Positions 29,227 to 59,021 of a stretch of 64,000 nucleotides of DNA are shown here, piece after piece. The DNA comes from an uncultured delta proteobacterium (GTDB lineage: Bacteria; Myxococcota; Myxococcia; Myxococcales; Anaeromyxobacteraceae). The notes below the pieces were generated by a model. It had not been told where the DNA came from, made no database searches, and saw only the letters and a program-made list of their open reading frames with translations. Position numbers and translations under genes: made by a program. The stretch is taken from contig CAWFDF010000014.1 in assembly GCA_963814585.1 (NCBI GenBank), positions 128,001 to 192,000 of the forward strand. The letters run 5' to 3'. Positions within the stretch are counted from its first letter, which is position 1. Every line of letters starts with the position of its first letter.

Positions 29227-29297
29227 GTGCATGACCTCGCATTGGTCCGCCGTGCGTCGCCATCGACCACGGAGGACGTGCCGTTGTGAGGGCGCGG

Positions 29298-37181: not shown

Positions 37182-37585
37182 CCCCCACCCAGCGCGTCTT
37201 CGCCATCGTCATCTCGGTCACCACCTTCCTGGTGGTCATGGAGCTGATCCGCCGCCGCCGCCTGCGCGAGGAGTACGCCCTCCTCTGGGTGCTCACCACC
37301 GTCGGCATGATGGTGCTGGCCACCTGGTACGGGCTGATCGAGCGGATCACGCAGGTGATCGGCGCGGTGGCCGTGACCACCACCCTCTTCCTCTTCGCGC
37401 TCATCTTCCTGCTGCTCATCAGCGTCCACTTCACCACCGTCCTCTCCCGCCTCACCGTCCAGGTCCGCCGCCTCACGCAGGAGCTGGCCATCCTGGAGGC
37501 GGAGCGAGGCCGCCCTGGCGAGGCCTCCGGCACGTCCGCCTCACCCTCCACCGGAGCTCCGGCCGGCCCGGAGCGCCGCTCGTGA
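37178..37585 (+). CDS. DUF2304-like small membrane protein
   Basis: LIRRRRLREEYALLW, three TM helices, C-terminal RRLTQELA; overlaps the GT2 stop. Confidence 0.8.
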   Translation: MTPTQRVFAIVISVTTFLVVMELIRRRRLREEYALLWVLTTVGMMVLATWYGLIERITQVIGAVAVTTTLFLFALIFLLLISVHFTTVLSRLTVQVRRLTQELAILEAERGRPGEASGTSASPSTGAPAGPERRS

Positions 37586-40123: not shown

Positions 40124-41638
40124 CTACCCCGCCTTCCGGCTCGAGCCCGGGCCACCCGCCACCGGCCCGGTGATGGGGCCAAGCTCGGCCAGCATGGCGC
40201 GGACCGACTCGGGCATCTCGGCGCCGCTGGCCATGTGCTTCATCTCGTGGCCGAGGTAGCTCTTCTCGATGAGCAGCTTGAGCACGCTCACCATGAAGGC
40301 CCGCTTCTCCGGCGTGAGCTTGTCGAGGTTCTTGAACTTGTCGTGGAAGAAGTGGCCGGTGGCGCGGTGGAGCTCCCGCTGGACCTCCTCCAGGGTCATG
40401 TTGTCCGGCTTCATGACCGGCTCGACCAGGTTGTAGCGCCGGTAGTCCCGGGTGGCGACGTGCGCGTCGAGGTCGCCGGCGATCTCGGCGTAGGGCCAGG
40501 GCGTCAGGGCCAGGAAGAAGGCCATGTCCGGCGCGTACCACTTGGCCAGCTCGACCGTCTTGCGGATGGACGCGGCGGTCTCGTCGGGCGTGCCGAGCAC
40601 GAAGGAGGTCTCGCTGACCATGCCGTGCTGGTTGATGAGGTCGATGGCCCTCTTCGACTCGTTGACCTTGATGTCCTTGTGGTACAGGTCGAGCGTCGAC
40701 TGGCTGGTCGACTCGACGCCGACGTAGATGTGGCTGATGCCCGCCTTGACGTACTTGGGCAGCATCCGCTCGTCGCGGATGACGTCGTCGACGCGGGTCT
40801 CCATGAGGATCTCGACGCCGACCTGCCGCTCGATCAACAGGTCGAGGATGGCCTCCCAGCGCGCCCGGTCGGAGGTGGGGGTCTCGTCGGAGAGCATGGT
40901 GACCGCGACGCCGTAGCTGTCACGAAGGTGCTCCAGCTCGGCGACGAACCTGAGCGGCTGGCGCCCGCGCCAGCTCCGCCCCCAGAACTTCTGCTGCGAG
41001 CAGAAGCTGCAGCGCGAGGAGCAGCCGCGCGCCGAGTTGGCGATGGCGAGGCGGCCGTGCGGCCTGGGCCGGTAGTGGTAGAGCGGCCAGTCGAGGAGGT
41101 CCCAGGCCGGCTGGACGGCGTCGATGTCGGCGAGGAGCGCGCGCGGGCCGTTGCTGGCCGGATGGCCATCCCGGCGCCAGGCCAGCCCGTCGATCCGGTC
41201 GAACCCCTCGCCGGCCTCGAGCGCCTTGACCAGCTCGATGACGGTCAGCTCCCCCTCGCCGCGGACCACGAAGTCGACGCTGGGGTCGTCGCGGAGGATC
41301 TGCTCCCAGCAGAAGGTGGCGTGGACGTTGCCGATGACGGTCTTGACCGCCGGGTTCCAGGCCTTGGCGGTGGCGCAGATGACGCGACTGTCGGGCTCGG
41401 TGGCCGTGATGGCGGTGGTGCCGACCAGGTCCGGCTTGAAGGCCTCGATCTTCTTCCGGATGTCATCGTGCGACGCGAACAGGCTCATCGCGTCGTAGAT
41501 CTCGACCTCGGCGCCGGCCAGCCGGGCCGCCCCGGCGACGTAGGCGAGGTTGAGCGGCATCCAGACGCCGGCCGACTCGACCACCCCGGAGTGATAGGGC
41601 GCGGTGACGAGCAGGACTCGGAGGCGGCGAGCGGTCAT
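40124..41638 (-). CDS. Cobalamin-binding radical SAM enzyme (BchE-like, class B)
   Basis: PLNLAY, GNVHAT, GEGE B12-binding domain; ARGCSSRCSFC (CxxxCxxC); GVES. Confidence 0.9.
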   Translation of the reverse strand: MTARRLRVLLVTAPYHSGVVESAGVWMPLNLAYVAGAARLAGAEVEIYDAMSLFASHDDIRKKIEAFKPDLVGTTAITATEPDSRVICATAKAWNPAVKTVIGNVHATFCWEQILRDDPSVDFVVRGEGELTVIELVKALEAGEGFDRIDGLAWRRDGHPASNGPRALLADIDAVQPAWDLLDWPLYHYRPRPHGRLAIANSARGCSSRCSFCSQQKFWGRSWRGRQPLRFVAELEHLRDSYGVAVTMLSDETPTSDRARWEAILDLLIERQVGVEILMETRVDDVIRDERMLPKYVKAGISHIYVGVESTSQSTLDLYHKDIKVNESKRAIDLINQHGMVSETSFVLGTPDETAASIRKTVELAKWYAPDMAFFLALTPWPYAEIAGDLDAHVATRDYRRYNLVEPVMKPDNMTLEEVQRELHRATGHFFHDKFKNLDKLTPEKRAFMVSVLKLLIEKSYLGHEMKHMASGAEMPESVRAMLAELGPITGPVAGGPGSSRKAG

Positions 41639-41811
41639 GCGGTTTCTCCCGAGCAAGCGACCCCGGCTGGCGGGGTGCTCTCACTGTACCATGGCCGCCG
41701 GTCCACGACGGCTGGTTCCAGGAAAGATCCCTGTCCTTTCAGCTACATCGGACAAACGATTGTTTGGAGTCCGGGGGGCGTCAAACTGTCGCATGCTAGA
41801 CTCCGCCTCCG

Positions 41812-42162
41812 ATGCGCGACCGGCTCACCATCCTCAACGCCTTCGTCCACGACGTCGCCACCGGCACCTGGATCGGGACGCTCCTCCTCCTGACCATGCT
41901 CCACCGGGAGGCCCAGCGGCCGGCCTGGTTCCTGGCCGGCCACCTGGTGCCCGGCCTGGAGCGGAAGTTCCTGGTGGTCACCTGGGTGAGCCTGGCGGTG
42001 ATCGTGGCCACCGGCGTCATCCGCATGGTGACCTGGAAGGTCTTCGGCTGGACCGGGGACATGGAGAAGAGCCGCATCCAGCTGCTCAAGGTGAAGCACG
42101 CCCTGCTCGGCGTGGTCTTCGCCGCCGGCACCCTGTACCAGTGGCTGCTGGTCTACTCGTGA
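41812..42162 (+). CDS. Small three-TM membrane protein (CopD/DUF4149-like pattern)
   Basis: FVHDVATGTWIG, ATG.IRM, LLKVKH; strong GC3 coding bias. Confidence 0.7.
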   Translation: MRDRLTILNAFVHDVATGTWIGTLLLLTMLHREAQRPAWFLAGHLVPGLERKFLVVTWVSLAVIVATGVIRMVTWKVFGWTGDMEKSRIQLLKVKHALLGVVFAAGTLYQWLLVYS

Positions 42163-42275
42163 TCGCCTCGCGCCGCCGCCGCTGCCCCCCTGGCTTGCGC
42201 GACGCACCGCACGCTGAACGATGTAGGTCGCGGCGCGCGACGTGGTCACGTCCCGACTCCGTCCAGTGAGGATCG

Positions 42276-45200
42276 TCAGTAGGCCCCGCCCAGGCGAGTA
42301 GGTCTCGGTGGTGTCGCCGAGCGTGCAGCCCCCAGGTGCTGCCGCAGGGACTGGCCGCTCTGCAGCGTACGCGGGAGTAGCGTCGAGCCGCCGATCTGCG
42401 GCGGGCTGGTGGTTCGACATGCTCCGTGGTGTTGCGGATGAAGGCGTAGGGCCTGGCGTTGACCTGTGCCGGGGAACCGGTCGAGGTTCCAGCCCACCGT
42501 CCCGGTCTTGCGGTCACCGGTGAAGCCGGCAGCACGTTGACCCCGTGGACGTCCTGCGCGCGAACCGGCCGCACCACCGCGGTCGTGTAGTCGCTGCCGT
42601 GACACCTGTTGCAGCCATACTGCAGGTAGACCTGCATGGTGTTGTTGGAGTCGAAGTCGAATGCCGAACCCGGGCCGTGTGACACGTTGGAGTTGCACGT
42701 GTTGGTCGCGCCCCCGCAGGTGTCGTAGCCTGGCGTGGCAGACGGCGCAGAGCGTCGCACCGGTGGTCGCCGAGGGCGCCGTGCCGCTGGCCGTGGCGTT
42801 GCCCCGGAGCGTCACCGCTCCGCCGTGGGCCGTGACCGTGGTGGTGATGGTGCCGCGTGACTCCCGTGCCGCGCATGGCAGTCCCAGCAGGAGAGCAGCA
42901 GACCCCAGCCGGTGGTGGTGCCGGCCGTCTTGGTCGACGCTCCAGGGCGCCACCATGCGGGTGCCTGATGCGTAGGAGTTGTTCTGCTTCCCGGTCACCG
43001 GGTGGTACGAGGAGTTGGTCGGCGCGAAGGAGGCGTTGACGTCGGCGACGCCGCCCGCGACGCCGTTGGCGGTCACGCCCGCGCCCACGTAGGCCGCGCC
43101 CGCGATGGTGGTGCCGAAGGGCTTCTCCGCCGTCCCGGTCGTCGGCACCCGCGCCGAGGCGCTCAGCGCGCCGTTGCCGTCGTGGCACTTGAGGCACTGG
43201 TTGATCATGATGGCCTGGACCGCCGGCTCCAGCGTGGCGCTGGCCAGGTTGCGGCTGAACGCCGTGAAGGTCGCGTCGGTGGCGGTGCTGGCGTAGGCCC
43301 CGGCGCCGGTGCCGCCGAAGGTGACCCCCTTGATGTTCAGACCGGTGTCCGGATCCCTCAGGTTGATGAGCCCGTCCCTGTGGACGCCCGACGGGTTGCC
43401 GGTGGCCGCGTCGCCTTCCATGTGGCAGACCACGCAGTCCCACTTGGTGACGACGGTGTTGGCGGGCACGCCGCCACTGGAGGAGCGTTTGTGCGACCAG
43501 GCGTTCCTGAACTCGGGGACGATGGGGCGCCTCGTCCCCTGGACCTCGTCGTGGCAGGTCACGCAGTCGCCGCCGCCGTCGAGCTGGCCGTTGATGTGGC
43601 TCAGCTGGTTCACCGCCGCGATGGTGCTCGCCGAGGTCGGCGAGCTGGCGTAGCCCGGGTGGCAGGAGCCGCAGAGCGGATCGCTCGGGTGGGCCGCCGT
43701 GACGGGTGGCAGGCCGTGGCAGGAGCCACACTGGGCCGCGCTGGCCGCGCCGGTCCAGGCCGGGGCGTTGACCTGGCCAGCGGCCGTGTCCGTGCTCTTC
43801 GGATCGTGGCAGTAGGTGCTGGAGCAGGTGGGCTGCGCGTAGGAGGCCGCCTTGGTCTCGAAGGCGTTGTCGCCGGCCAGGGCGCCGAAGGTCAGCGTGG
43901 CGCGGGCCACGCCGGTCCCCACGCCGGTGGCGTGGGCGACGTCGGTGTTGCTCGTCGGGACCAGGTGGCACTCGGCGCAGGCGATGGCCGTGGAGCGCCA
44001 GCGCGGCGTGTTGCCGGCGCCGTTCCCCACCAGGTGGGCCTCGTGGGCGCCGACGCCGACGGCCGTGGTGGCCACCGCGCCGACGGTGTCGTACGAGTTG
44101 GTGCCGCTGCCCGAGGCCCCCGGCGCCGACTTGAGCGGCGCCGCCGCCAGGACGTTGGCTGCCCCCAGCTCGCCGTGGCAGCCGGTGCAGCCCGAGGTCG
44201 ACCTGGTGACGATGGCGTCGACGTGGGTCGCCGCCGTCACCGTGGTGCTGGTGGAGCCGGCGTGGCAGGTGCTGCAGGTGGTGTTCTGCGGGTGCGGGTA
44301 GGTCGGCTGCGAGGCGGTGGTCCCCTGCCCGTGGCAGGCGGTGCAGGCCAGCTTGGCGGTGGTCCCGGTGCCCCAGCTCACCGTGTTGGCGAGCTTGCCG
44401 CCCGGGAAGTTGCCGTGGCAGTAGGTGTTCGAGCAGGTCTTGCTGGCCGCGCTGTAGGCCGTCGGCGTGATCCCGCCCGCCGTGGCGATGTTGCCCCACA
44501 GCACCGGGTTGGCCGGCGTGGCGTGCGGCGCGGTGGTCCAGACCTGGCCGAGGTGGCAGTTGTCGCAGCGCAGCGCATTCGAGAGCGGCCCCGGCGCCGC
44601 GACGTCGCCCTGGTTCACGTGGGCCTGGTGGGCCCCGACCAGGTTGCCGGTGGCCACGCCGCTGCCGTCGAGCGGCGGCGCCGCCTTGACCAGGTTCTGC
44701 CCGTTGACGTCGTTCCAGACCGCGGTGGCGACCGGGGTCCGGCCCACCGCTCCGTGGCACGAGGTGCAGGTCATGTTGGCCACGTCGAGCGACCCGTTGA
44801 TGTGGGCCAGGGCGTTGACCGCGGCGATGGTGCTGGCCGTGGACGGCGCGTCGGCGTAGCCGGGGTGGCAGCCGCTGCAGGCCGTGCTGGACGTGTGGCC
44901 GCTGGCCAACGGAGGCAGGCCGTGGCAGGAACCGCACTGGGCCGTGGCGGCCGCCCCGATCCAGGACGGCGCCTGGTTCAGTCCGGCCACCGTGTCGGCG
45001 CGCGGCGCGTGGCAGTAGGTGCTGGCGCAGCCGGGCTGCGTGTAGGTCGGCGTCCGGGCCCCGAAGGCGTTGTCGCCGGCCAGGGCGCCGAAGGTCAGCG
45101 TGGCGCGGGCCACGCCGGTCCCCACGCCGGTGGCGTGGGCGACGTCGGTGTTGCTCGTCGGAACCACGTGGCACTCGGCGCAGGCGATGGCCGTGGAGCG

Positions 45201-48200
45201 CCAGCGCGGCGTGTTGCCGGCGCCGTTCCCCACCAGGTGGGCCTCGTGGGCGCCGACGCCGACGGCCGTGGTGGCCACCGCGCCGACGGTGTCGTACGAG
45301 TTGGTGCCGCTGCCCGAGGCCCCCGGCGCCGACTTGAGCGGCGCCGCCGCCAGGACGTTGGCCGCCCCCAGCTCGCCGTGGCAGCCGGTGCAGCCCGAGG
45401 TCGACCTGGTGACGATGGCGTCGACGTGGGTCGCCGCCGTCACCGTGGTGCTGGTGGAGCCGGCGTGGCAGGTGCTGCAGGTGGTGTTCTGCGGGTGCGG
45501 GTAGGTCGGCTGCGAGGCGGTGGTCCCCTGCCCGTGGCAGGCGGTGCAGGCCAGCTTGGCCGTCGTCCCGGTGCCCCAGCTCACCGTGTTGGCGAGCTTG
45601 CCGCCCGGGAAGTTGCCGTGGCAGTAGGTGTTCGAGCAGGTCTTGCTGGCCGCGCTGTAGGCCGTCGGCGTGATCCCGCCCGCCGTGGCGATGTTGCCCC
45701 ACAGCACCGGGTTGGCCGGCGTGGCGTGCGGCGCGGTGGTCCAGACCTGGCCCAGGTGGCAGTTGTCGCAGCGCAGCGCATTCGAGAGCGGCCCCGGCGC
45801 CGCGGCGTCGCCCTGGTTCACGTGGGCCTGGTGGGCCCCGACCAGGTTGCCGCCGGCGGTGCCGCTGGCGTCGACCGGCGGCGCCGCCCTGACCAGGTTC
45901 TGCCCGTTGACGTCGTTCCAGACCGCGGTGGCGACCGGGGTCCGGGCCACGTCGCCGTGGCAGGTCGTGCAGGTCATCGGGACGAGGTCGAGCTGGCCGT
46001 TGATGTGGTTGGTCGCGCTGACCGTGGTGCCGGTGTAGCCGGAGTGGCACCGGCCGCAGTCGGTGCTCGACTGGGGGTGGGTCCCACCGGGCAGCGTCGC
46101 CGTCGCCCCGGCGCCGGCCCCGTGGCAGGAGTTGCAGGTGAGCGCGGCGTCCTGCGCCCAGCCCACGGTGAAGGCGGGGCCCTTGCCGTTGGTGAAGTTG
46201 CCGTGGCAGTAGGTCGCGGTGCAGCCGACGCCCCCGGCCCGGCTGTAGGTCGGCGTCACCGCCGGCGACCAGATGGTGTTCACCGCGCCGCGCGCCAGCG
46301 CGCTCCACGTCAGGGTGGCCCGCGCCCCGCCCGTCCCGACGCCCACGGCGTGGGCCGTGTTGCCGTCGGCCGGCACCAGGTGGCAGTCGGCGCAGGCGAT
46401 GGCCGCCGACCGGTAGGTCGTCTGCTGCAGGTGGGCCTGGTGCGCGCCGTACTCGTTGGTCGTCGCCGCCACCGGCCCGCCCGTCGTCGACAGGCCCGTC
46501 CCGCCGGCGCCAGGCGCCGAGTTGAGCGGCGTCGCGGCCAGCACGCCCGGCGACGGCGTCGAGAGCACGCCGTGGCAGCCGCTGCAGCCGAAGGTCCCCC
46601 TGTTCACCGCACCGTCGACGTGGGTGCTCGCCGTCACCGAGCTCGCGGAGTAGCCGGCGTGGCAGGTGACGCAGGTGGCGTTCTGCGGGTGCGGGTAGCC
46701 CGGCTGCGGCGCCGCCACCGACTGGCCGTGGCAGGCGTTGCAGGCCAGCTTGGTGGCGGCCGTCGGTCCGGTCCCCCAGGCCACCACGTTCGACGGGATG
46801 CCGCCGGCGAACTGGCCGTGGCAGTACGTCGAGCTGCAGCTCAGGGTGGCCGGCGCGTAGGCCGCCCCGGCGGCGACGGCGATGTCACCGAAGGTCACCG
46901 TGGTCACGCCGTCGGAGTGGGTCGTCGAGGACGGCACCACGTGGCAGGCGACGCAGCGCTGGGCGGCGGAGAGCGGGGCGCCCGTCGCCCCCTGGTTGAC
47001 GTGGGCGAGGTGGGCGCCGACCTGGTTGCCGGAGGCCAGGCCGCTCAGGTCGATCGGCGGGGCGGACTGCTGCAGCGGCTGGTTGAAGACGTCGAGGTCG
47101 GTGGCGGTGGCCACCGAGGCGCGGGCGAGGTTGCCGTGGCACCCCGTGCAGGTGTCGGCGGCGGCGTCGAGCCGGCCGTTGAGGTGGAGCGCGGCGCTGG
47201 CGGTGGTGGTGGTGTAGCCGGCGTGGCAGACCGAGCAGTCCGTGTTGCCCTGCGGGTGCGTCCCGCCGGGCAGCGAGGCGATGGCGACGGTGGCGGCCGC
47301 GGCGCCGTGGCAGGAGTTGCAGGTCAGGGGGCCGACCGTGGTCCAGCCCACGGTGGCGTTCTTGCCGTTGCGGAAGTTGCCGTGGCAGTAGGTCGAGGCG
47401 CAGCTGCCGCCGGCGGTGCCGCCGGCGAACGAGGCCGACCCCGTGTAGGACGGGTTGACTGGCGCCCCGGACCAGGCGTTGACCGCCCCGGTGGCGGTGG
47501 TGCTCCAGGCCAGGGTGGCCCGGGCGCCGCCGGTGCCGGCCCCGCCGGTGGCGTGGGCGGTGTCGGTGTTGCCGGACGGGAGCGCGTGGCACTCCCCGCA
47601 GGCGATGGCGACGCGGCCGATGACCCCGGCGCCGAGGTGGGCCCTGTGGGCTCCCACGCCCGCCGAGGTGGCGGCCGTCTGGCCAACCGTGTCCATGGTG
47701 CCCAGGGCGTTCGTGCCGGTGGCGCCAGGCGCCGCGGCCGCCAGGTTGGCGGGCGGCGTCACCGTCACGCCCGTGGCCGAGAGCTGGCCGTGGCAGGAGG
47801 TGCAGCCCGACGTGGTCTTGTTCACCGTCCCGTCGACGTGCGTGGCCGCCGTCACCGCCGAGGAGGTGTAGCCGGCGTGGCAGGTGGCGCAGGCCAGGTT
47901 CTGCGGGTGCGGGTGCGGTGGCTGGGCCGCCGTGGCCTGGCCGTGGCAGGCGTTGCAGGCCAGCTTTCCGGCCGCGTTCCAGCCCACCGTGTTTCCCTGC
48001 AGGCCCCCCGTGAACTGGCCGTGGCAGTAGGTGGCGCTGCAGCCCCGGGCGACCGGGTCGTAGGTCGGCGAGGCGCCGTTGGTGGCCAGGCCGCCGAAGG
48101 TGACGAGGACGCTGCCGTTGGAGTGCGCCCCGGCGAGCGGGATCAGGTGGCAGGCGTCGCAGCGGACCGCGCTGGAGAGCGCCGGCGGCGTGGCCCCCTG

Positions 48201-51200: not shown

Positions 51201-51512
51201 GCGGTCGCCGTCGGGCGTGCCGTCCGGCTTCACCATGTGGCCGGCGTCGCCGATCAGCCCGGGGACCTTGTGGCAGTCGTCGCAGGCGACCAGCTTGCCG
51301 AGGTGCGCCGTGTGGGCGCCGATCGCGCCGCCGATCGCGGAGCCGGCGAGGTCGTTGGGCGGTGCCCCGGTCTGGTCGCCGGCCGCTCCGCCGTGGCAAC
51401 CGAGGCAGCTGCCCGGCCCGGATGGGTTGGGTGGCGTTCGCCTCGCCTTGTCGCAGCTTCCGAGGGAGAGCGCGGCGAAGAGGGCGGCGACTGCGAAGGC
51501 ATGACGGCGCAT
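42276..51512 (-). CDS. Giant lipoprotein multiheme c-type cytochrome (about 3,070 aa, about 73 heme motifs; CxxxxCH/CxxCH-domain family); last ~700 bp carry multiple +1 frameshifts
   Basis: Signal peptide with lipobox LGSC; manual count about 60 CxxCH (two in shifted frames) and 13 Cx3CH/Cx4CH; ends GGAY*. Confidence 0.93.
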   Translation of the reverse strand: MRRHAFAVAALFAALSLGSCDKARRTPPNPSGPGSCLGCHGGAAGDQTGAPPNDLAGSAIGGAIGAHTAHLGKLVACDDCHKVPGLIGDAGHMVKPDGTPDGDRRAEITWGARATHGGTFSASFSPAPAPGKGGSCTVYCHGASLGASGGSATTPAWGDPPMNCGSCHGDAVANPSSPNTTGAPPSHAAGLTPTDCATCHPDTVTPAGQLTTTGAHIDGQVQASGCTACHGDTTRGEPVGSQAAWAPPRDSRGQTTGPQVGAHLRHVSTVASLGSRISRPFECSECHRVPTNGGPHGQPVIQWATGTNDLVDLDGLSPSYAAGSCASTYCHGGSLAGGSNKTPAWNTPGAGACGSCHFISGPVAPHPVTDKSGLAITAATQCAQCHPGTVNADGTINTGNGLHVNGLPEFDYHPVGYSNPATHGPQALQGLAACATCHGSSFAGQGAAPSCTACHAAAGRPTWLTDCTFCHGAGNRAADAAFAAVGNPPVAANRAAPPEGTQGETGANQPAVGAHLAHIQPSSSLNPAGALAIQIQCTECHGAVLPGDEKHADGSVAIGWGSLARARSAVPTPAEGNLIAGWEANPTCTNYCHGITLAGGGAKVNPNWVAGAPEAACGTCHAARPGTWHPNNGACGQCHPGYSASGVNALTHVNGLIDPAGTNCTSCHGGPSGNPAPPYATTGASSGVKVGAHQPHTAGGTLVAAGYGCGTCHTGPASLRHGNDQVDMAWTAPATAGGVTPAPLAGALPVAAWEAAPTCTNYCHGASLTAAGGTNKTPSWTAGAGQVACGTCHGAPPPLAASPAGANHPQNPVCASCHGAGYAVAGISGTARTTHVDTLVTLVVSGCTSCHGDRAVAGVTLGNGLAASAPSGGNQLDTTGQGLVSAPGVGAHAAHASGTTYRSAALACTECHALPPTNADRAHATGAGTGGARATLAWGNLALGTPASWNNEAVAPSYAGSTSAAYGTTAGSCASTYCHGQFKNGGKATVAWTSTGGLTCNSCHGAGTGPTATLPGGSHPQGSTACGSCHGAGYGGTAVDKATHLDGLVQVSTLSCSSCHGDPARAPVLTAAELDANGAPLVQASPPAGVTTANQVGAHLAHVNQGATPPALSSAVRCDACHLIPLAGAHSNGSVLVTFGGLATNGASPTYDPVARGCSATYCHGQFTGGLQGNTVGWNAAGKLACNACHGQATAAQPPHPHPQNLACATCHAGYTSSAVTAATHVDGTVNKTTSGCTSCHGQLSATGVTVTPPANLAAAAPGATGTNALGTMDTVGQTAATSAGVGAHRAHLGAGVIGRVAIACGECHALPSGNTDTAHATGGAGTGGARATLAWSTTATGAVNAWSGAPVNPSYTGSASFAGGTAGGSCASTYCHGNFRNGKNATVGWTTVGPLTCNSCHGAAAATVAIASLPGGTHPQGNTDCSVCHAGYTTTTASAALHLNGRLDAAADTCTGCHGNLARASVATATDLDVFNQPLQQSAPPIDLSGLASGNQVGAHLAHVNQGATGAPLSAAQRCVACHVVPSSTTHSDGVTTVTFGDIAVAAGAAYAPATLSCSSTYCHGQFAGGIPSNVVAWGTGPTAATKLACNACHGQSVAAPQPGYPHPQNATCVTCHAGYSASSVTASTHVDGAVNRGTFGCSGCHGVLSTPSPGVLAATPLNSAPGAGGTGLSTTGGPVAATTNEYGAHQAHLQQTTYRSAAIACADCHLVPADGNTAHAVGVGTGGARATLTWSALARGAVNTIWSPAVTPTYSRAGGVGCTATYCHGNFTNGKGPAFTVGWAQDAALTCNSCHGAGAGATATLPGGTHPQSSTDCGRCHSGYTGTTVSATNHINGQLDLVPMTCTTCHGDVARTPVATAVWNDVNGQNLVRAAPPVDASGTAGGNLVGAHQAHVNQGDAAAPGPLSNALRCDNCHLGQVWTTAPHATPANPVLWGNIATAGGITPTAYSAASKTCSNTYCHGNFPGGKLANTVSWGTGTTAKLACTACHGQGTTASQPTYPHPQNTTCSTCHAGSTSTTVTAATHVDAIVTRSTSGCTGCHGELGAANVLAAAPLKSAPGASGSGTNSYDTVGAVATTAVGVGAHEAHLVGNGAGNTPRWRSTAIACAECHVVPTSNTDVAHATGVGTGVARATLTFGALAGDNAFGARTPTYTQPGCASTYCHAPRADTVAGLNQAPSWIGAAATAQCGSCHGLPPLASGHTSSTACSGCHPGYADAPSTASTIAAVNALAHINGSLDVANMTCTSCHGAVGRTPVATAVWNDVNGQNLVKAAPPLDGSGVATGNLVGAHQAHVNQGDVAAPGPLSNALRCDNCHLGQVWTTAPHATPANPVLWGNIATAGGITPTAYSAASKTCSNTYCHGNFPGGKLANTVSWGTGTTAKLACTACHGQGTTASQPTYPHPQNTTCSTCHAGSTSTTVTAATHVDAIVTRSTSGCTGCHGELGAANVLAAAPLKSAPGASGSGTNSYDTVGAVATTAVGVGAHEAHLVGNGAGNTPRWRSTAIACAECHLVPTSNTDVAHATGVGTGVARATLTFGALAGDNAFETKAASYAQPTCSSTYCHDPKSTDTAAGQVNAPAWTGAASAAQCGSCHGLPPVTAAHPSDPLCGSCHPGYASSPTSASTIAAVNQLSHINGQLDGGGDCVTCHDEVQGTRRPIVPEFRNAWSHKRSSSGGVPANTVVTKWDCVVCHMEGDAATGNPSGVHRDGLINLRDPDTGLNIKGVTFGGTGAGAYASTATDATFTAFSRNLASATLEPAVQAIMINQCLKCHDGNGALSASARVPTTGTAEKPFGTTIAGAAYVGAGVTANGVAGGVADVNASFAPTNSSYHPVTGKQNNSYASGTRMVAPWSVDQDGRHHHRLGSAALLLGLPCAARESRGTITTTVTAHGGAVTLRGNATASGTAPSATTGATLCAVCHARLRHLRGRDQHVQLQRVTRPGFGIRLRLQQHHAGLPAVWLQQVSRQRLHDRGGAAGSRAGRPRGQRAAGFTGDRKTGTVGWNLDRFPGTGQRQALRLHPQHHGACRTTSPPQIGGSTLLPRTLQSGQSLRQHLGAARSATPPRPTRLGGAY
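43861..45978. repeat. Intragenic direct repeat, 1,203-bp period (near-identical cores ~43861-44775 and ~45064-45978)
   Basis: AAGGCGTTGTCGCCGG at 43861 and 45064; GTGCAGGTCAT at 44764 and 45967; few substitutions between copies. Confidence 0.95.
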
Positions 51513-51606
51513 TGAGGCGACCTCGTACCGTCCTCCGGTGACAGGAGGATGCGGCGACCGGGATTGCGGAGACGCCCCATCGTGCCGGATTCGCACCAGC
51601 AGCGAA

Positions 51607-51620
51607 TTGATGCAGGTCAA
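51607..51620. promoter_or_regulatory. FNR/Crp-family box upstream of the giant cytochrome
   Basis: TTGATGCAGGTCAA, one mismatch to TTGAT-N4-ATCAA, in an AT-rich patch. Confidence 0.65.
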
Positions 51621-51721
51621 GCGATCGAAAATTTACCTGTCGGAACGCACTTTTCACGACATGGCCGCGGCGCCGAGGCCAGCGCGCAGAGCGCCCGTGG
51701 ACGGGGGGCGGGGCTGGAACG

Positions 51722-53220
51722 TCACAGCTTGTTCGGGCCGGGTGTCTCCGACTGCAACCCGGCCGGGTGGTCCTCCAGCTTCTGCTTTCGCGCCTGCTCC
51801 ACGAACCACTCCATGGGGCGCTCGGTCTGGTCCTTGAACGTCTGGAGGGACTCGTCGCGCTGGCGCGCGGCGTCCTCGTCACCCTGCGAGACCAGGATCT
51901 CGTCCACCACCTGCGGGCAGGAGGCCACCGAGCCCGGGCGGGCCTCGATCTCCTCGCGGGTGCTCGGCTCGGCCGGTGGCGCCCTGGCGATCAGCATCTT
52001 CAGGTCGATGGAGAAGTTCACGTAGGTCTCCAGCATCCGGAAGATGGCCGAGTCGCCCATGCCGCCCACCGGCCGCTCGTCGGGCAGCGGCGAGACCTTG
52101 CCGCCCTCGAGCTTGGCCCGGCCCACGATCTCGCAGCCTCGACCCGCCGTCGGTGGTGTACCCGAGGTTGTCGGTGATGACCGCCAGCACGGTGGGGACG
52201 TTGGCGAGGTCCCAGTGGGCCATCAGCCCGACCTTCCCGTCGGGCAGTGGCTCGAGCGTGTCGACGTCCATGGCCAGCACGCGCGACCAGGGCGGCACCG
52301 GGCGGATCCGGTTGCGCGGCGGCAGGCCCTGGACGCGGCGCCGGAGGGCGTCGTCGAAGAGGTTGGTGGCGGTCTCGGCCTCGCCGAGCACGTTGACGCA
52401 GTGTGAGGAGGGGACCCCGAGCGTCTCCTCCACCATGGCGTAGTAGTCGTCGCGGGTCACCGTCCCGAAGCGCCCACGGTAGCCGCCGCCGTCGCAGATG
52501 CGGCTCCCGGTAGGCAGCTTGAAGGTCCATCTTCTTCCGCTTGCAGGCCTGGAAGAAGTAGACGTAGGCGGAGGTGGCGCCGATGATCGCCACCGGCACG
52601 CCACTCGCCTCCGCCTCGCGCAGCGCCTTGAGCAGGCCGTGGATGTCGATGCCGGTCCGGTTCAGCAGGAACTGGCTGTCGGGGGTGCCGAAGTGGGTCC
52701 GCGTCTGCTCCATGCCGATGGCCATGCCCATGGAAGGCGCCATCTCCGGGCTGGGGGCCAGGATGAGGATGCGGCAGCGCCGCCCCTCCTCGAAGTCGGG
52801 GAAGAGGTAGGCGCCGGTCATCCGCTTGTTGGCGCCGAAGACCAGCCGCTTGCCGTCCTCGTCGCGGAAGATGCGGCCCCGCTGGGTCAGGCTGGTGGTC
52901 CCGCCGGTGAGGCAGCCCATCACCGCCCGCTCCAGCGGGAAGGAGGCCACCAGGTGGGTCTTGAACATGTCGTTGTAGACCAGCGGGATGTCCTGCCAGC
53001 GAGACACGTCGCCGGGGCGCACCTTCTTGGCCTCACAGAACTCGCGGAAGATCGGGTTCACCTCGTGGTGAAGGGCGAACATCCGCAGGCAGGAGCCGTT
53101 GAAGTCGGGCACCTCGGCGTCCACGCCGGCCTCGATGTACCCGAGGACCTCGTCGGTCAGCCTCCGGCGCTCGAGGGCGGGGCCGGACGGCTCGGAGGTG
53201 GCGGCGGGCGGGGTCGGCAT
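51722..53220 (-). CDS. LuxE-like acyl-protein synthetase (adenylating enzyme), split by two +1 frameshifts (~52527, ~52144)
   Basis: NPIFREFC, WQDIP...FK, TGGTT, DGGGYRG, PPWSRV...DVDTLEP, DLAN, VITDNLG, EIVGR joined across three ORF-track frames. Confidence 0.8.
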
Positions 53221-53285
53221 GCTCGGTTCCTTTGCACGAGGAAGGCCAGCAGGAGCGGCGCGCTCGCGCACCGCGGCACCGGCGG

Positions 53286-54653
53286 CTACGGGGCGATCGA
53301 ACCGGTGAGGGCGGGACCGGGCCGCGCCTGCTTCTCGCGCACGGCCTGCTTCGATTCCTTCCACTTCTGGTACGCGATCTTCATGCCGGTGCGGACCGGG
53401 AGCTGGTTCATCAGCGAGAGGACGTGGGCGTGGGGGAAGCCGGACGCCGGGACCTCGAACATGTGCTTCCAGATCCGCCCCAGCTTGAGCAGCTCCAGCG
53501 AGGTCTCGTAGAACCGCTCCTCGCGGACGTCCGGCGTCATGGCCGGATCCGGGTGCTCGAAGAGCGCGTAGGCGCCCGTGTAGTACTCCCAGCCCAGGTC
53601 CCTGTAGAGGTAGGGCTCGTACTCCTGGCGCAGGTCGGTGCCCGGGTACGGGACCACCAGCGAGGGGTGCATGCTCACGCCCAGCCGGTCGGCCAGGTCG
53701 ACGGCGCGCCGGTAGTCGTCGAGCGAGTCGGCGCGCGAGCCGAGCATGAAGAAGAGGGAGACGTCGATGCCGTGGTCCTTCAGGGTCCGCACCGCCCGCT
53801 CCCGGTCGACGCCGACCTTGCGGTCGGCGCGGTACGCCTCGAGCCCTCCATCGGTGATCGACTCCCACCCCACCCAGACCGTCAGCATGCCGCTCGCCCG
53901 GGCCGCCCTGAGCATGCGGGAGCCCTCCGGGGCGAGCACCGGCGCCAGGCTGCCGAACCCCATCCACTTCTTCCTGCTGCCCCGGAGCGCCGTGAAGAGC
54001 TCGGTGGCCCGATCCGTCTTCCCGAGCCACCAGATGTTCTCGTCGCCGTTGATGTACATCTTGCCCGGGATGGCATCGACGTCGCGCACCACGTCGTCGA
54101 TGGGGCGCATGCGGATCCGCGAGCCGAAGACCTTCCTCACCGTGCAGAAGCTGCACGGGTACGGGCAGCCGCGGGCGGTGCTGACGATGCGGAAGTCGTG
54201 GCCGTGCTTGAGGAGGCCGTAGGCCGGCGTCGGCAGGCCGTCGAGCGGCAGCTGCTCGCCCCGGTAGAAGGGCTGGAGCCGGCCGGCGCGGAAGTCCGCC
54301 AGGACGGTCGGCCAGACCGACTCGGCCTCGCCGGTCACCACCGCATCGGCGTGTTGCCTGGCCTCCTCGGGCAGGGCCGTGGCGTGCATGCCGCCCACCA
54401 CCACCTTGATGCCCCGGGCGCGCAGCCCGTCGGCGATCCGGTAGCCGGGGACGGAGGTCGGCGTCAGCAGGCTGATGGCGGCCAGGTCGCACTCCAGCGT
54501 GTCGAAGACGTCCGGCGTGGCGCTGGCGCTGTAGAGCTCGATCTCGATGCTGGGATCGGCCTGGCGGGTGAGTGCCGCCAGGTACTCGAGGATGGGCGGC
54601 GCGACCGGGGTCCAGCCGAAGGGGAGCGGTGGCTTGATGATGCAGAGCTTCAC
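53286..54653 (-). CDS. Cobalamin-binding radical SAM enzyme
   Basis: LEYLAALT, VVVGGMHATALPEEA, GEAE; ARGCPYPCSFC; GWES; PYPGT. Confidence 0.9.
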   Translation of the reverse strand: MKLCIIKPPLPFGWTPVAPPILEYLAALTRQADPSIEIELYSASATPDVFDTLECDLAAISLLTPTSVPGYRIADGLRARGIKVVVGGMHATALPEEARQHADAVVTGEAESVWPTVLADFRAGRLQPFYRGEQLPLDGLPTPAYGLLKHGHDFRIVSTARGCPYPCSFCTVRKVFGSRIRMRPIDDVVRDVDAIPGKMYINGDENIWWLGKTDRATELFTALRGSRKKWMGFGSLAPVLAPEGSRMLRAARASGMLTVWVGWESITDGGLEAYRADRKVGVDRERAVRTLKDHGIDVSLFFMLGSRADSLDDYRRAVDLADRLGVSMHPSLVVPYPGTDLRQEYEPYLYRDLGWEYYTGAYALFEHPDPAMTPDVREERFYETSLELLKLGRIWKHMFEVPASGFPHAHVLSLMNQLPVRTGMKIAYQKWKESKQAVREKQARPGPALTGSIAP

Positions 54654-54760
54654 GTCAGTCCTCGTCCCCCGGAGGCGGCGGATCGTACCCGATGCCGGAG
54701 GCGGAGTGGAGAGGCCTGCCGGTAAACGAAGTTATTCGAAGCCCTCGGAGGGCTGCGAAA

Positions 54761-56083
54761 TCACAGCGGCTCCACCTTCCAGGCGAGCCGGAGACCATCC
54801 TTCACGCCATAGGCGACCGACCTGCCGTCGGCCGTGAACCGGACCGGGAAGACCTGCTGGTAGGGCGGATGCTGCCGGACCGTCCTGCCGCCGAGGTCGG
54901 CCACCACCACGAAGCGCCTCCCGTCCTGGCGCGCCCGGTAGACGAGGAACCTGCCGTCCGGGCTGAACGCCGGCGAGACCACCCGGTCGAGCGGCGGCCC
55001 TTCCTTGCCGTTCACCACCACGAACCAGCGCTCGCCTCGGCGCGCCACGTAGGCATGTGAGCGGCCGTCGCTGGAGTAGACCAGCGCCTCGAGCTCGTCC
55101 ACGGCCGGTCCGGCAGCCTCGCCCGCGGCGAAGGGCTGGAGCAGGCGAACCAATCCGCCCTCCAGGATCGCGACGCCGAGGGCCTTCTTCCCTGGACGGA
55201 TCACCGGGGGTCCGAACACCTCCCCGGGCGGCAGCGGCTCCTCCAGGTCGTCGAGCACCACCAGCCGCCGGCCGGCTCGCTCCGCCAGGTAGGCCACCGA
55301 CGCGCCGTCCGGACCGAGGGCCGGGCTGGACGCCGCATCGTAGCCCGGCCCCCGGTGGACCCGGCCTGGCGCGGCGAAGGCCAGCTTCAGCACGGTGGCC
55401 TTCCCTTCCCGTTCCCCGACGGCCGCGAGCCACCTCCCATCCGCGCTGCTCACCAGCTCGGAGGCGCGTGCCTCGACCACCACCTGCTCCTGGAAGTCGA
55501 GGTCGCTCACCAGCAGCCGTCCGACGCCCTGCTGGTCGGGGTCGGCGATGAAGGCGAGCCGCGAGGAGTCGCCGCTGAACCGGAGCTCCGGAGGGGGCGA
55601 CCGGGCGCCCGGGCCCAGCGTGCCGTCGATGACCGGGTGCCACCGCTCCCCGGCCCGGGCCAGGTAGGCGACGTGCGCGCCGTCGGGGCTGAAGGCGGGG
55701 GCCTGGATCTCGGCGAACCCCGGCCCCTCCGCGCCATCGACGACCAGCCGCCAGGTCCCGTCGACGAGCGCGCCGTGGGCGCAGCGCCGCCCGTCGGGGC
55801 TGAGGACGATCGTCCCCACGGCGGCGAAGGCCTTGCCGGGGCGCCCGTCGTGGACGACCTGGAAGCGGCCGCCCTCCTGCTCGACCCAGGCGACGCCACC
55901 GCCGCGCTCGGCGAAGAGGTACTCCCGCTCCGCGTCCGCCGGCAGGGTGGCGAGGACGGCCGGCCGGTCGGCGACGGCGGTTGGCGGAGGGCCGCGCACC
56001 GGCTCCGGCCTTCCGCAGCGGCAGCCCGCGAGCGACAGCCAGACGCTGCACGCGGCCGCCAGCGTTCCGAGGCGACGATCCAT
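54761..56083 (-). CDS. Lipoprotein with PD40/TolB-like beta-propeller repeats
   Basis: Lipobox LAGC; repeated (F/L)SPDG.(H/R)(V/L)AY.A...G.RW..VVDG units. Confidence 0.75.
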   Translation of the reverse strand: MDRRLGTLAAACSVWLSLAGCRCGRPEPVRGPPPTAVADRPAVLATLPADAEREYLFAERGGGVAWVEQEGGRFQVVHDGRPGKAFAAVGTIVLSPDGRRCAHGALVDGTWRLVVDGAEGPGFAEIQAPAFSPDGAHVAYLARAGERWHPVIDGTLGPGARSPPPELRFSGDSSRLAFIADPDQQGVGRLLVSDLDFQEQVVVEARASELVSSADGRWLAAVGEREGKATVLKLAFAAPGRVHRGPGYDAASSPALGPDGASVAYLAERAGRRLVVLDDLEEPLPPGEVFGPPVIRPGKKALGVAILEGGLVRLLQPFAAGEAAGPAVDELEALVYSSDGRSHAYVARRGERWFVVVNGKEGPPLDRVVSPAFSPDGRFLVYRARQDGRRFVVVADLGGRTVRQHPPYQQVFPVRFTADGRSVAYGVKDGLRLAWKVEPL

Positions 56084-56096
56084 GGCGGGTCTGCCT

Positions 56097-56921
56097 TCAG
56101 TGCTCGACGCGGAAGCCCTTGTGGAAGGTCTCGACCGAGAAGGGAATGCCCCAGTAGCTCACGATCATGACCACCACCGCGGCCAGCGCGTACCAGGCCA
56201 GCCGCCGCCCGCGCCAGCCCATGGTGATGCGCAGGTGGAGGTAGATGCCGTAGACCAGCCAGGAGACCAGGGACCAGACCTCCACCGGGTCCCAGTTCCA
56301 GTAGCTGCCCTTGGCCTGGTCGGCCCAGAGCGCCCCGGTCACGATCATCAGCCCGTACATGATGAAGCCGGCGGCGACGAACCGGTAGCCGAGCCGGTCG
56401 ATGTCGGCCGGGGACGGCAGCCGGTCGTAGATGCCGCCCGATCGCCCCTCCTTGAGCAGGAACATCAACGCCATCCCCGCCGCCATGAGCACGGCGGCGA
56501 AGCCGATGGTGGCGCCGACGATGTGCGCCCAGAGCCAGCCGCTCTGCAGCGCCGGGGCCACCTGCGACGCGGCCGCCTCGCGCAGCGTGCCGGCCCAGCC
56601 GATGAGGACGAAGACCACCGGGAGCACGAAGGCGCCGAGCGGCCGCACCCTGGGCGTCGAGGCCTGCACCACCAGGAAGAGCGCCACCGCCATGAAGGTC
56701 CCGAGCGCCAGCGACTCGGAGATGGAGAAGAACGGGCTGACCCCGCCGGCCACCCAGCGGACGGCGATGCTGGAGAGGTGGGCGACGAAGCCGAGCGCGG
56801 CCGCGCCCAGACCGGCGGCGAGCAGCTTGCCGTTCTCGGCAATGAACCCGAAGACGTAGGCGAAGGCGCTCACCCCGTAGAGCCCGATGGCACACCAGAA
56901 CAGCAGCTGCTCGACGTTCAC
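56097..56921 (-). CDS. ccsA: System II cytochrome c synthase, CcsA/ResC family
   Basis: PALQSGWLWAH, TGALWADQAKGSYWNWDPVE, YLHLR, C-terminal His; multiple TMs. Confidence 0.92.
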   Translation of the reverse strand: MNVEQLLFWCAIGLYGVSAFAYVFGFIAENGKLLAAGLGAAALGFVAHLSSIAVRWVAGGVSPFFSISESLALGTFMAVALFLVVQASTPRVRPLGAFVLPVVFVLIGWAGTLREAAASQVAPALQSGWLWAHIVGATIGFAAVLMAAGMALMFLLKEGRSGGIYDRLPSPADIDRLGYRFVAAGFIMYGLMIVTGALWADQAKGSYWNWDPVEVWSLVSWLVYGIYLHLRITMGWRGRRLAWYALAAVVVMIVSYWGIPFSVETFHKGFRVEH

Positions 56922-58126
56922 GGGATCTCCTTCGGCACCGGGGTGCCTGGCTCTGGGCGGCTCGGTGCGCGCCTGCCGCGCTTCTCGTCCTGCCGGATGC
57001 GGCCGATGAAGGTCATGGTCATGCCGGCCAGGCCCGCCCAGAGGCTGGTGAGGATGACCGTGAGGCCGGGGTCGTGGCGGACCGTCATGCCGACCCAGTA
57101 TCTCACCTCCCGGGCCTCCAGCCGGTGGTCCCCGGCCTCGAACGTGCCGCCGACGGTCACCTTGCCGGTGGCGGCCGGCTCCGTGGCGCCTGGCACCGCC
57201 TGGTGGTCCTTCCCCGTGGCGCCCCCCGGCCCGGCGCCCGCCTCGCCCAACGGCCAGGTGAAGAACTCCACCTGCCCCGCCCGATCCTGCTCCCGGTCCG
57301 GCACGTACCCCACCTGGAGCAGCAACGCCGGCCTGTCGGGGGGAGGCGGGAACGGGAAGGAGCCCGGCTCCCTGGCTGAACCGGTGGTGTAGAGGAAGGC
57401 CTCCTTGCCCATGGGAATGCTCTGCAGCGGGACCATGGCCGCGTAGAGCTCCCGACCCTGCCGGTCGTGGAGGACGACGCCGAGCGAGTAGCCCTCCTTC
57501 GAGACCAGGTAGCGCACGCCGCGGTGGTCCAGGTTCTGCGTCATGTAGATGGTCGCGGTCGCCCTTCCCTCGCCGTCGCCGACCGCGATCTCGTAGGCGG
57601 CGCGCTTGTCCTGCCCGTCCACCTTGTAGTCCCGGTGCATCTTCAGGAGCGTGGTCTCGCCTCGGAGCCGCGTGAAGTCGAAGAGGCGCCCCACCTCCAC
57701 CGTGTCGTAGCTGGACGCCTCGCCGTTGGGCAGCGTCTCGCCCTCGGTCAGCCGCAGCACCCCCTTGAAGTGGAAGAGGCTGTTGAAGACCACGCCGCCC
57801 AGCAGGGCCATGAAGCTCACGTGGAACAGGATCATGCCCACGGAGATGAGCGTGAGCTTCCGGCCCCAGGTGCGGGCCAGGAAGGTCACTCCCGAGCTCA
57901 GCGCCAGCAGGACCAGCAGCCCGTTGAACCAGAGCGTGTCGAAGATCAGCGCCCAGGCCCGCTCGCCGGTGAAGACGGTCACGCCCACCAGGCAGCAGGC
58001 GAGGACGGCGACCAGCAGGGCGATGGCGAGGCGCGGCGAGGAGATCACCGCGAAGGCCCGCCGGCCCAGGCCGGGCCCGGGGCGGCGCGGAGGCACGGTC
58101 GCGGCTGGGCCTTCGACGGGCGTCAT
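56918..58126 (-). CDS. resB: System II cytochrome c biogenesis protein, ResB/CcsB-like
   Basis: SSPRLAIALL, IFDTLWF, LFHVS...LLGG, LTEGE, C-terminal HDPG.TVI; overlaps the ccsA start. Confidence 0.85.
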   Translation of the reverse strand: MTPVEGPAATVPPRRPGPGLGRRAFAVISSPRLAIALLVAVLACCLVGVTVFTGERAWALIFDTLWFNGLLVLLALSSGVTFLARTWGRKLTLISVGMILFHVSFMALLGGVVFNSLFHFKGVLRLTEGETLPNGEASSYDTVEVGRLFDFTRLRGETTLLKMHRDYKVDGQDKRAAYEIAVGDGEGRATATIYMTQNLDHRGVRYLVSKEGYSLGVVLHDRQGRELYAAMVPLQSIPMGKEAFLYTTGSAREPGSFPFPPPPDRPALLLQVGYVPDREQDRAGQVEFFTWPLGEAGAGPGGATGKDHQAVPGATEPAATGKVTVGGTFEAGDHRLEAREVRYWVGMTVRHDPGLTVILTSLWAGLAGMTMTFIGRIRQDEKRGRRAPSRPEPGTPVPKEIP

Positions 58127-58367: not shown

Positions 58368-59021
58368 CTACTCGTCCACCCGGACCACGCCCCGCTTGAT
58401 GGCGAAGCGGACCAGCTCGGTGCGGTTGTGCAGCCCGAGCTTCTCCATCACGTGCTCGCGATGCGTCATGGCGGTCTTGACGCTGATGCCGAGCACGTCG
58501 GCCACCTCCTTGTTGCTCTTCCCGTCGGCCACCAGCTTCAGCACCTGCTTCTCGCGATCGGTGAGCCCGTCGTACGGGTCGGCCTGCCCGGTCGAGGCCG
58601 GCCCGCCCTCCGACATGGCGACCCGGGCCACGGCCGGGTCGAGCACCAGCCCCCCCTTGTGGACGGCGCGGATGGCCCCGGCCAGCTCGGCGCCGGCCGA
58701 GCGCTTGAGCACGTAGCCCGAGACCCCGGCCTGGAGCAGCCGCCGCACGTACTCGCGGTCATCGTACTGGGAGAGGATGAGGATGCGGGCCCGGCGCCCC
58801 TGCTTCTTCAGCTCCAGGCTGGTCTCGATGCCGCCCAGCCCGGGCATGGCGATGTCCATCAGCACCACGTCGGGGTCGAGCCGGGCCACCGCCGCCAGCG
58901 CCTCCTGCCCGTCGCTGGCCTCGCCGACCACCTCGAGGTCCTCGTGCTCCCTGAGCAGCGCGCGCACGCCCTCGCGCAGGATGGCGTGGTCGTCGACGAT
59001 GAGGATGCGGATGGCGCTCAT
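58368..59021 (-). CDS. NarL/LuxR-family response regulator
   Basis: ILIVDDHAILREG, LMDIAMP, LTDREKQVLKLVADGKSNKEVA. Confidence 0.95.
   Translation of the reverse strand: MSAIRILIVDDHAILREGVRALLREHEDLEVVGEASDGQEALAAVARLDPDVVLMDIAMPGLGGIETSLELKKQGRRARILILSQYDDREYVRRLLQAGVSGYVLKRSAGAELAGAIRAVHKGGLVLDPAVARVAMSEGGPASTGQADPYDGLTDREKQVLKLVADGKSNKEVADVLGISVKTAMTHREHVMEKLGLHNRTELVRFAIKRGVVRVDE

Follow-up and report, generated by a model that had tools for sequence, protein, structure and literature searches.

Why should the gene for a giant multihaem cytochrome c, and the genes that attach its haem, be accompanied by two B12-binding radical S-adenosylmethionine (SAM) enzymes and a LuxE-like ligase? 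Cytochrome c maturation is thought to require haem export, thiol reduction and thioether formation only. The question is raised by a run of genes in the stretch of DNA analysed here (the window), 64,000 nucleotides of contig 14 of an Anaeromyxobacteraceae genome (4.34 Mb in 18 contigs, 91.7% complete; guanine-plus-cytosine content of the window about 72%). We argue that these genes, referred to below as the cassette, very probably form one functional unit that serves the family of cytochromes to which the giant one belongs and, because they co-occur with that one multihaem family in three phyla, that they likely perform an additional step of cytochrome maturation. The features concerned are these:

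56918-58126, minus strand: ResB/CcsB-like System II biogenesis protein (PF05140; likely start 58126, open frame to 58213)
56097-56921, minus strand: CcsA/ResC-type haem exporter and lyase subunit (PF01578)
54761-56083, minus strand: PD40-repeat beta-propeller lipoprotein (PF07676)
53286-54653, minus strand: rSAM1, predicted class B (B12-binding) radical SAM enzyme (PF02310 and PF04055)
51722-53220, minus strand: LuxE-like adenylate-forming enzyme, in three reading frames in the assembly (PF04443)
42276-51512, minus strand: giant cytochrome c, a lipoprotein built of repeated CxxxxCH/CxxCH modules, about 3,079 codons (TIGR01904)
42276-43650, minus strand: the cytochrome's conserved C-terminal six-haem domain, with several frame breaks in the assembly (tblastx)
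41812-42162, plus strand: small three-helix membrane protein of 116 codons (tblastn)
40124-41656, minus strand: rSAM2, predicted BchE-like class B radical SAM enzyme (TIGR02026)

The original prediction, made from the letters of this DNA, had described resB, ccsA, the propeller gene, a B12-radical SAM gene, the LuxE-like gene and the giant cytochrome gene as co-oriented and tightly packed, and so they are: all six lie on the minus strand with gaps of -4 to 209 bases, the stop of resB overlapping the start of ccsA by 4 bases. The small membrane gene and the second B12-radical SAM gene that it placed past the 3' end of the cytochrome are likewise present, although the small gene is the sole plus-strand member of the set and points away from rSAM2.

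Could this arrangement be a matter of chance? We consider that it is not, because the same gene set was found again in 80 loci from several phyla. A scan with rSAM1, restricted to one genome per species, returned 107 relatives, from which 80 loci (59-92% identical) were kept. These come from Anaeromyxobacter and other Myxococcota, Geobacteraceae, Desulfuromonadales, Nitrospirota, Thermodesulfovibrionia, one Chloroflexota and one Dongiaceae record, and their cultured carriers include Citrifermentans bremense, Geotalea species, Anaeromyxobacter oryzae and A. oryzisoli. The proteins of the window were mapped onto the loci by tblastn, and gene counts were limited to loci with enough flanking sequence. 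Of 70 loci, 63 encode CcsA no more than 3 kb upstream of rSAM1; the LuxE-like gene was found in 45 of 50 loci, rSAM2 in 41 of 50 (at least 9 kb of downstream flank), ResB in 35 of 51 (at least 5 kb of upstream flank) and the propeller in 27 of 46 (at least 8 kb upstream); CcsA, the LuxE-like gene and rSAM2 occur together in 27 of the 34 fully flanked loci. An open frame with both CX4CH and CXXCH motifs stands near rSAM1 in 19 of 34 loci, and homologues of the small membrane protein, mostly encoded directly before rSAM2, were found in 55-56 of the 80. Across phyla, identity to the window is 71-83% for the LuxE-like protein, 70-76% for rSAM1 and 59-68% for CcsA, with 52-57% for rSAM2, 43-54% for ResB and 27-54% for the propeller.

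The FastTree tree of rSAM1 groups the sequences largely by phylum, with 8 label changes where the minimum is 5, which fits a history, as read from these sequences, in which transfer between phyla happened a few times and descent was vertical thereafter. Gene order within the cassette is variable, with the LuxE-like gene inverted in places and insertions of up to 10 kb; the set remains together. Similar neighbourhoods in Geobacter-like genomes, which the earlier note had mentioned, are real: the set recurs in loci of the Geobacter group and has a published relative in G. sulfurreducens and G. metallireducens. These comparisons support the view of a conserved, mobile, cytochrome-linked unit that consists of ResB and CcsA, the two B12 radical SAM enzymes, the LuxE-like protein and the small membrane protein.

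What has been reported of such units? According to the available portions of Aklujkar et al. (2009; PMC2700814), four ResB/ResC pairs in two Geobacter species adjoin multihaem cytochromes, and each was proposed to serve the cytochromes nearby. Table S5 of that paper lists, as a run, GSU2893 (acyl-protein synthetase), GSU2892, GSU2891 (ResB), GSU2890 (ResC), GSU2889 (hypothetical), GSU2888 (an iron-sulfur oxidoreductase of the radical SAM kind) and GSU2887 (27-haem cytochrome), with Gmet_0592-Gmet_0597 as the G. metallireducens counterparts and the label "cytochrome c biogenesis gene cluster 3"; in the portions available the accessory genes of GSU2888-GSU2893 are given no function. GSU2891 and GSU2887 were detected by proteomics, according to the part of PMC8691401 available. 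Compared by table annotation only, these runs resemble the cassette in setting ResB, ResC/CcsA and an acyl-protein synthetase, together with a radical SAM enzyme and a small conserved hypothetical protein, beside 23-27-haem cytochromes, and differ from it in having one radical SAM enzyme, no annotated counterpart of rSAM1 and no propeller in the run.

Which cytochromes, then, does the cassette accompany? The giant cytochrome, which carries a lipoprotein-type signal, matches TIGR01904 (the CxxxxCH/CxxCH domain) above its cut-off, with 341.5 bits in 13 stretches, and has roughly 73 haem motifs; those before position 42950 are 57 CXXCH, 3 CX3CH and 10 CX4CH. What it shares by tblastx with the cytochromes of the other loci is its last ~420 residues and not the CxxxxCH repeats. 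In an alignment of this domain (A2, 18 sequences) there are five invariant CXXCH motifs and one near-invariant one, six more invariant histidines, and invariant non-haem residues that include N-S-S-x-H-P, an R, F-x-R and a lone C, and its haem sites are ordinary CXXCH sites only. A profile search of the PDB with the domain gave nothing significant (best MtrC, E 0.027). Only the window and two other loci (L009 and L010) have the giant gene placed between the LuxE-like gene and rSAM2, the cytochromes of other loci being encoded upstream of the propeller and ResB genes; the giant gene's position is a local rearrangement. Within the gene lies a 1.2-kb tandem duplication (43577-44805 and 44783-46008, 91.6% identical), and whole haem modules have therefore been copied recently. 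A second cytochrome with the domain is encoded in the same genome, on contig 8 (540103-544566; L090:6104-10567), in an unbroken frame of 1,488 codons with 28 CXXCH and 1 CX4CH motifs, and its surroundings, out to 20 kb, lack genes for ResB, CcsA and the propeller.

Whole genomes were compared in the same respect. The generic TIGR01904 domain is present in 59 of 61 Anaeromyxobacteraceae genomes, whereas the LuxE-like query matches 10 of them, nine with orthologues and one (G130) with only a 54% identical paralogue. Scored for the LuxE-like orthologue and the C-terminal domain, these 61 genomes divide into 9 with both, none with either alone and 52 with neither. The 121 genomes of the Geobacter-type order have both in 28, the LuxE-like gene only in 4, the domain only in 2 and neither in 87, and the 121 Nitrospirota have both in 7, the LuxE-like gene only in none, the domain only in 2 and neither in 112. 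Over all 303 genomes, both are found in 44, each alone in 4 and neither in 251, counts that mark a strong association and are not a probability, because the genomes are related and the samples partial. One domain-only genome in each of the Geobacter-type and Nitrospirota samples has a divergent LuxE-like gene 11 kb off on the same contig. We also picked five genomes whose cassette locus has no cytochrome within 10 kb: in four the domain was found elsewhere in the genome, and in two of those four the cytochrome, propeller and ResB genes belong to the same extended cluster, with PMT/TPR genes between them and ccsA.

The original prediction had tied the enzymes to a giant cytochrome with atypical haem motifs and had proposed profiling them against CxxxxCH/CxxCH cytochromes. 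An association did emerge, with the C-terminal six-haem domain and not with CxxxxCH. The tie to atypical motifs does not survive, given the TIGR01904 domain's near-universal presence in Anaeromyxobacteraceae set against ten LuxE-like matches there and a partner domain with CXXCH alone, and neither does the tie to giant size, the partner being a conserved six-haem domain. We conclude from these comparisons that the partner of the cassette, as judged by co-occurrence, is the C-terminal six-haem domain and not the CxxxxCH motif or giant size, a result new to this study.

If the partner has ordinary haem sites, what is distinctive about the proteins encoded around it? The ResB-like protein, encoded beside ccsA, matches PF05140 with 41.3 bits (cut-off 24.6) and no NCBIfam model; its relatives, 43-78% identical, align from query residue ~28-51 on. 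CcsA reaches 121.8 bits with PF01578 (gathering score 29.9) and falls short of the CcsA equivalog TIGR03144 (176.7 bits in the window and 173.2 in the Nitrospirota locus L061, cut-off 187.6). Its translation holds WNWDPVEVWSL and then YLHLR, which we take to be the tryptophan-rich WWD motif with its flanking histidines. The cassette CcsA is assigned to a divergent, cassette-specific subfamily because the window's copy shares 59-68% identity with cassette CcsA proteins of Geobacter-group and Nitrospirota loci but only 30-36% with the further CcsA paralogues encoded in the same genome. Dedicated haem lyases are known from Wolinella succinogenes, where NrfI serves CXXCK and CcsA1 serves the CX15CH site of MccA, and the cassette is like them in placing an extra CcsA-type synthase beside, and apparently for, a particular cytochrome. 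There, however, the haem motif is unusual and no tailoring enzymes are known to take part, whereas in the cassette the domain is of CXXCH type and the synthase is tied to radical SAM and adenylating enzymes; an odd motif is no explanation for the private CcsA, because the partner domain has ordinary CXXCH only. The propeller protein matches PF07676 with 50.4 bits and, weakly and locally, TmcD_fam and TolB; its signal sequence, as read from the translation, ends in a lipobox-like LAGC, and its homologues are 27-64% identical.

Both radical SAM proteins score above cut-off with PF02310 and PF04055 and carry cluster motifs of the CX3CX2C form (CPYPCSFC in rSAM1, CSSRCSFC in rSAM2), the features by which we predict them to be class B, B12-binding enzymes; PDB searches with either found generic class B relatives only (OxsB, TokK, AprD4). 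The family of rSAM1 is very conserved and has no name, and the database names of its relatives are generic. Paralogues of rSAM1 occur: a tandem second copy in a Geotalea sp. (L051:11290-12660), and copies 42-50% identical in genomes of Anaeromyxobacteraceae, the cassette being absent from some of these (G027, G130, G230, G208, G203, G249, G192). BchE is the anaerobic Mg-protoporphyrin IX monomethyl ester cyclase, and rSAM2 resembles it in having B12-binding and radical SAM domains and in aligning with nearly the whole of TIGR02026 (387.3 bits, model positions 1-457 of 497). The runner-up model, HpnR, reaches 148.8 bits, the peptide-modifying family ApyD reaches 113, and the L061 protein has the same pattern, with the next family at about 145. 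The cassette enzyme differs from BchE in its neighbours, which are CcsA, ResB and cytochromes, not bacteriochlorophyll genes: no bch gene is among the neighbour families conserved across the 80 loci, and rSAM2 is the sole BchE-like gene in its genome.

LuxE acts as acyl-protein synthetase in the LuxCDE fatty-acid reductase, and the cassette protein is like it in its core: PF04443 gives 74.9 bits (against 24.9) in the intact 499-residue L061 orthologue and 22.1 and 31.2 in pieces a and b of the window, and PDB 7XC6 chain E is matched with E 1.6e-11. It departs from LuxE in scoring 61 against a cut-off of 550 with the equivalog NF052244, in a highly conserved C-terminal extension of ~135 residues, and in that no LuxC/LuxD-like family is among the conserved neighbours in the 80 loci. 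The extension matches 23 representative clusters only among 1.84 billion proteins, and an Atlas search returned LuxE-family clusters only. Relatives carry the gene unbroken, as a single frame of about 490-515 codons; the protein averages 78% identity over its full length, and one of its cysteines, close to where the LuxE core ends, is invariant. Genomes lacking the C-terminal cytochrome domain have LuxE-like paralogues, 43-51% identical, about 410-430 residues long and without the extension, which are presumably of the GSU2893 type.

The small membrane gene was found by tblastn with the L061 and L039 proteins (28-30% identity, E 5e-12). Two membrane histidines of the protein are invariant, one in an HD motif in helix 1 and one in a KH motif in helix 3 (alignment A4, 26 sequences). 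Its resemblance to CopD (PF05425; 17.2-18.8 bits, cut-off 32.1) is faint, and a search for fused forms among longer proteins gave one uninformative 276-residue protein with PF00391.

What might such a set of enzymes act on? It is possible that haem is the thing tailored, by cytoplasmic enzymes and before export. We favour haem because CcsA, a haem exporter and lyase, is the tightest genetic partner of the enzymes, because rSAM2 is far nearer to BchE than to any other family and is paired with a membrane protein bearing two invariant membrane histidines, and because the partner domain lacks an odd motif that would in itself require a private lyase. More specifically, and only as a tentative proposal, at least three phyla may make an altered haem c (methylated, ring-modified or propionate-derivatised) for one site or domain of extracellular multihaem cytochromes, through a pathway made up of the BchE-like enzyme, the second B12 radical SAM enzyme, the LuxE-like ligase and a private CcsA/ResB pair for export and attachment. 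In such a pathway, activation of a carboxylate would fall to the LuxE-like ligase, radical chemistry at the tetrapyrrole to rSAM2 together with the two-histidine membrane protein, and methylation to rSAM1; the dedicated CcsA would then export what results and join with ResB in attaching it to a site of the C-terminal domain.

Several observations weigh against this proposal. To our knowledge no modified haem c is known from these organisms. The best named models for rSAM1, all far below cut-off (TIGR04013 at 70.8 bits, methyl-coenzyme M reductase glutamine C-methyltransferase at 52.3), are methylases of proteins or of substrates not known, and not tetrapyrrole enzymes, and rSAM2 is below the curated BchE cut-off (387.3 in the window and 407.9 in L061, against 481.35). 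The LuxE-like orthologue is found without the domain in four genomes and the domain without the orthologue in another four, and the two-by-two counts overstate the support in any case, related genomes not being independent. AlphaFold2 models of the C-terminal domain (18 rows; mean predicted local distance difference test score, pLDDT, 35.2) and of the LuxE-like protein (30-row alignment; mean pLDDT 47.2) were unusable. Full-text literature searches, whose scope excluded subscription-only papers, found no account of the cassette, and it is not mentioned in the available parts of the BchE preprint 10.64898/2026.04.29.721654 or of PMC11492766.

Could the substrate instead be the cytochrome polypeptide? 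Under the foremost alternative, the radical SAM enzymes and the LuxE-like ligase would modify the unfolded cytochrome while it is in the cytoplasm, before Sec export, for example by C-methylation or cross-linking of a conserved residue of the C-terminal domain, and ResB and CcsA would attach ordinary haem. The co-occurrence of the cassette with a specific protein domain and not with cytochromes generally is what this would predict, the nearest named models of rSAM1 include a protein glutamine C-methyltransferase, and the domain offers invariant non-haem residues (N-S-S-x-H-P, the R, F-x-R and the lone C). Moreover, rSAM1, the LuxE extension and the domain are all found in this type of cassette, while the GSU2888-2893 type lists a single radical SAM enzyme. 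There are precedents in the anaerobic sulfatase-maturing enzymes (anSME) and QhpD, which act on proteins destined for export: as here, genes for cytoplasmic radical SAM enzymes stand beside that of a periplasmic redox protein, which is modified before export. Those enzymes, however, which we liken to the cassette's by description and not by sequence, are SPASM-type and not B12-type. We nevertheless think modification of the polypeptide rather unlikely: it leaves the private CcsA unexplained, along with the tighter linkage of CcsA to rSAM1 (63 of 70) than of the cytochrome gene (19 of 34), rSAM2 scores 387 bits with BchE versus 113 with ApyD, and no leader-like or recognition element was identified in the cytochrome.

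Alternatively, the enzymes might make or alter a surface component that the cytochrome needs, such as a special lipid, a lipid anchor or a glycan carrier. Several class B radical SAM enzymes have lipid substrates, and both rSAM1 and rSAM2 weakly match lipid-related models (the ladderane-type TIGR04072, HpnR and HpnJ); the cytochrome and propeller have lipoprotein-type signals, the LuxE family (PF04443; PDB 7XC6) activates fatty acids, and PMT_2/TPR glycosyltransferase-like proteins are encoded within the cluster in 25 of the 80 loci. We judge this improbable. Lipid-synthesis genes, of the LuxC/LuxD type or otherwise, are missing from the conserved neighbour families, the PMT/TPR genes are optional members to which the window's TPR membrane protein is not homologous, and the tightest partner of the enzymes, CcsA, handles haem.

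Or might the enzymes have no part in maturation at all? That only ResB and CcsA, perhaps with the propeller, serve the cytochrome while the radical SAM and LuxE-like genes hitch-hike on a mobile segment and do an unrelated job would accord with the multiple ResB/ResC pairs known beside multihaem cytochromes in Geobacter, which the available portions of PMC2700814 read as dedicated, and with three loci (L013, L014, L026) that have neither the LuxE-like gene nor rSAM2 within 10 kb. It is hard to reconcile with adjacency and genome-level co-occurrence in three phyla, with a set kept together despite inversions and insertions, and with a simpler relative composed of the same kinds of gene in G. 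sulfurreducens as well as in G. metallireducens, and we consider it decidedly improbable.

Is the locus intact in this genome? Against the relatives L008, L009 and L010, the LuxE-like gene has two 1-base insertions, near 52529-52533 and 52144-52148, and the final ~700 bases of the cytochrome gene hold at least 3 frame switches relative to single-frame homologues. Logan contigs from four public runs were aligned over the region. At both LuxE-like sites one base is missing from all covering short-read contigs, and one base is likewise dropped in all of them at the cytochrome sites 42424-42427 and 42728; cover was little or none at 42199-42381 and 42870-42990, and our verdict on the breaks excludes these stretches. 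The ratio of amino-acid-changing to silent changes relative to the nearest relative is 0.36-0.79 in the LuxE pieces and 0.49-1.00 in intact neighbouring genes. The breaks are most likely assembly errors or private to the strain and not signs of decay, because the covering contigs lack the extra bases and the LuxE pieces have substitution ratios like those of intact neighbours. That the LuxE-like gene and the cytochrome are pseudogenes in a decaying locus, as the several breaks and the second, unbroken cytochrome with the same domain on another contig might suggest, is highly improbable, since every difference is a single extra base in the window, absent from the covering contigs of the four runs at all four sites above, and the LuxE pieces have the substitution pattern of intact genes. 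Single extra bases absent from the covering contigs are scattered through the assembly of the region (52144-52148, 52529-52533, 42424-42427, 42728 and also 41678), and similar false splits may affect genes elsewhere in the genome, for instance a CcsA paralogue on contig 14 that was matched as two pieces with an internal TGA.

Conserved in metal-reducing Anaeromyxobacter, in the Geobacter group and in Nitrospirota, the cassette points to an extra, so far undescribed stage in the maturation of proteins that conduct electrons to the cell exterior. Should this stage alter either the haem or the protein, the redox potential or the assembly of long haem chains could be tuned by it, and heterologous expression of such cytochromes would require that it be provided too; an altered haem c would, in addition, amount to a novel branch of tetrapyrrole biochemistry as well as a new step of cytochrome c maturation. 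The question lends itself to direct testing, given that cultured carriers exist and that a simpler relative, going by the published annotation available, is present in G. sulfurreducens, which is genetically tractable.

Some loci have further genes inside the cassette. A secreted protein of ~170 residues, without a Pfam or NCBIfam match, is encoded between ccsA and rSAM1 in 31 of the 80 loci (for example L054:9306-9815, L051:9429-9962 and L067:8995-9525) and is absent from the window. The PMT_2/TPR glycosyltransferase-like membrane genes number one to three where they occur (L039:12887-18141, L088:9321-14310, L089:1-5458), a hint that cassette cytochromes may be glycosylated as well. The TPR membrane protein of the window (37582-40062) was considered as a cassette member and rejected, not being homologous to these recurrent genes. 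In L061, a Nitrospirota chromosome, NikR and CbiM/Q/O-type metal uptake genes follow rSAM2 (15036-18274), NikR homologues occurring in 7 of the 80 loci, and a gene of the PD-(D/E)XK nuclease family (9518-9904; PF13366, 148 bits) is inserted between ccsA and rSAM1.

In the window itself, a search with Rfam at gathering thresholds found no riboswitch and returned tRNA only. Directly upstream of the resB region, and co-oriented with it, are a HAMP/HisKA_3 sensor kinase (59018-60976, minus strand) and a NarL-type response regulator (about 58368-59015, minus strand, read from the translation), which may control the cassette. The remaining neighbours, at 6932-10084, 12597-12668 and 26192-29326 (all minus strand), are ordinary: aconitase-family and LeuA-like (HMGL-like) genes, a tRNA, and an extended reading frame in which methyltransferase and GT2 domains are combined.

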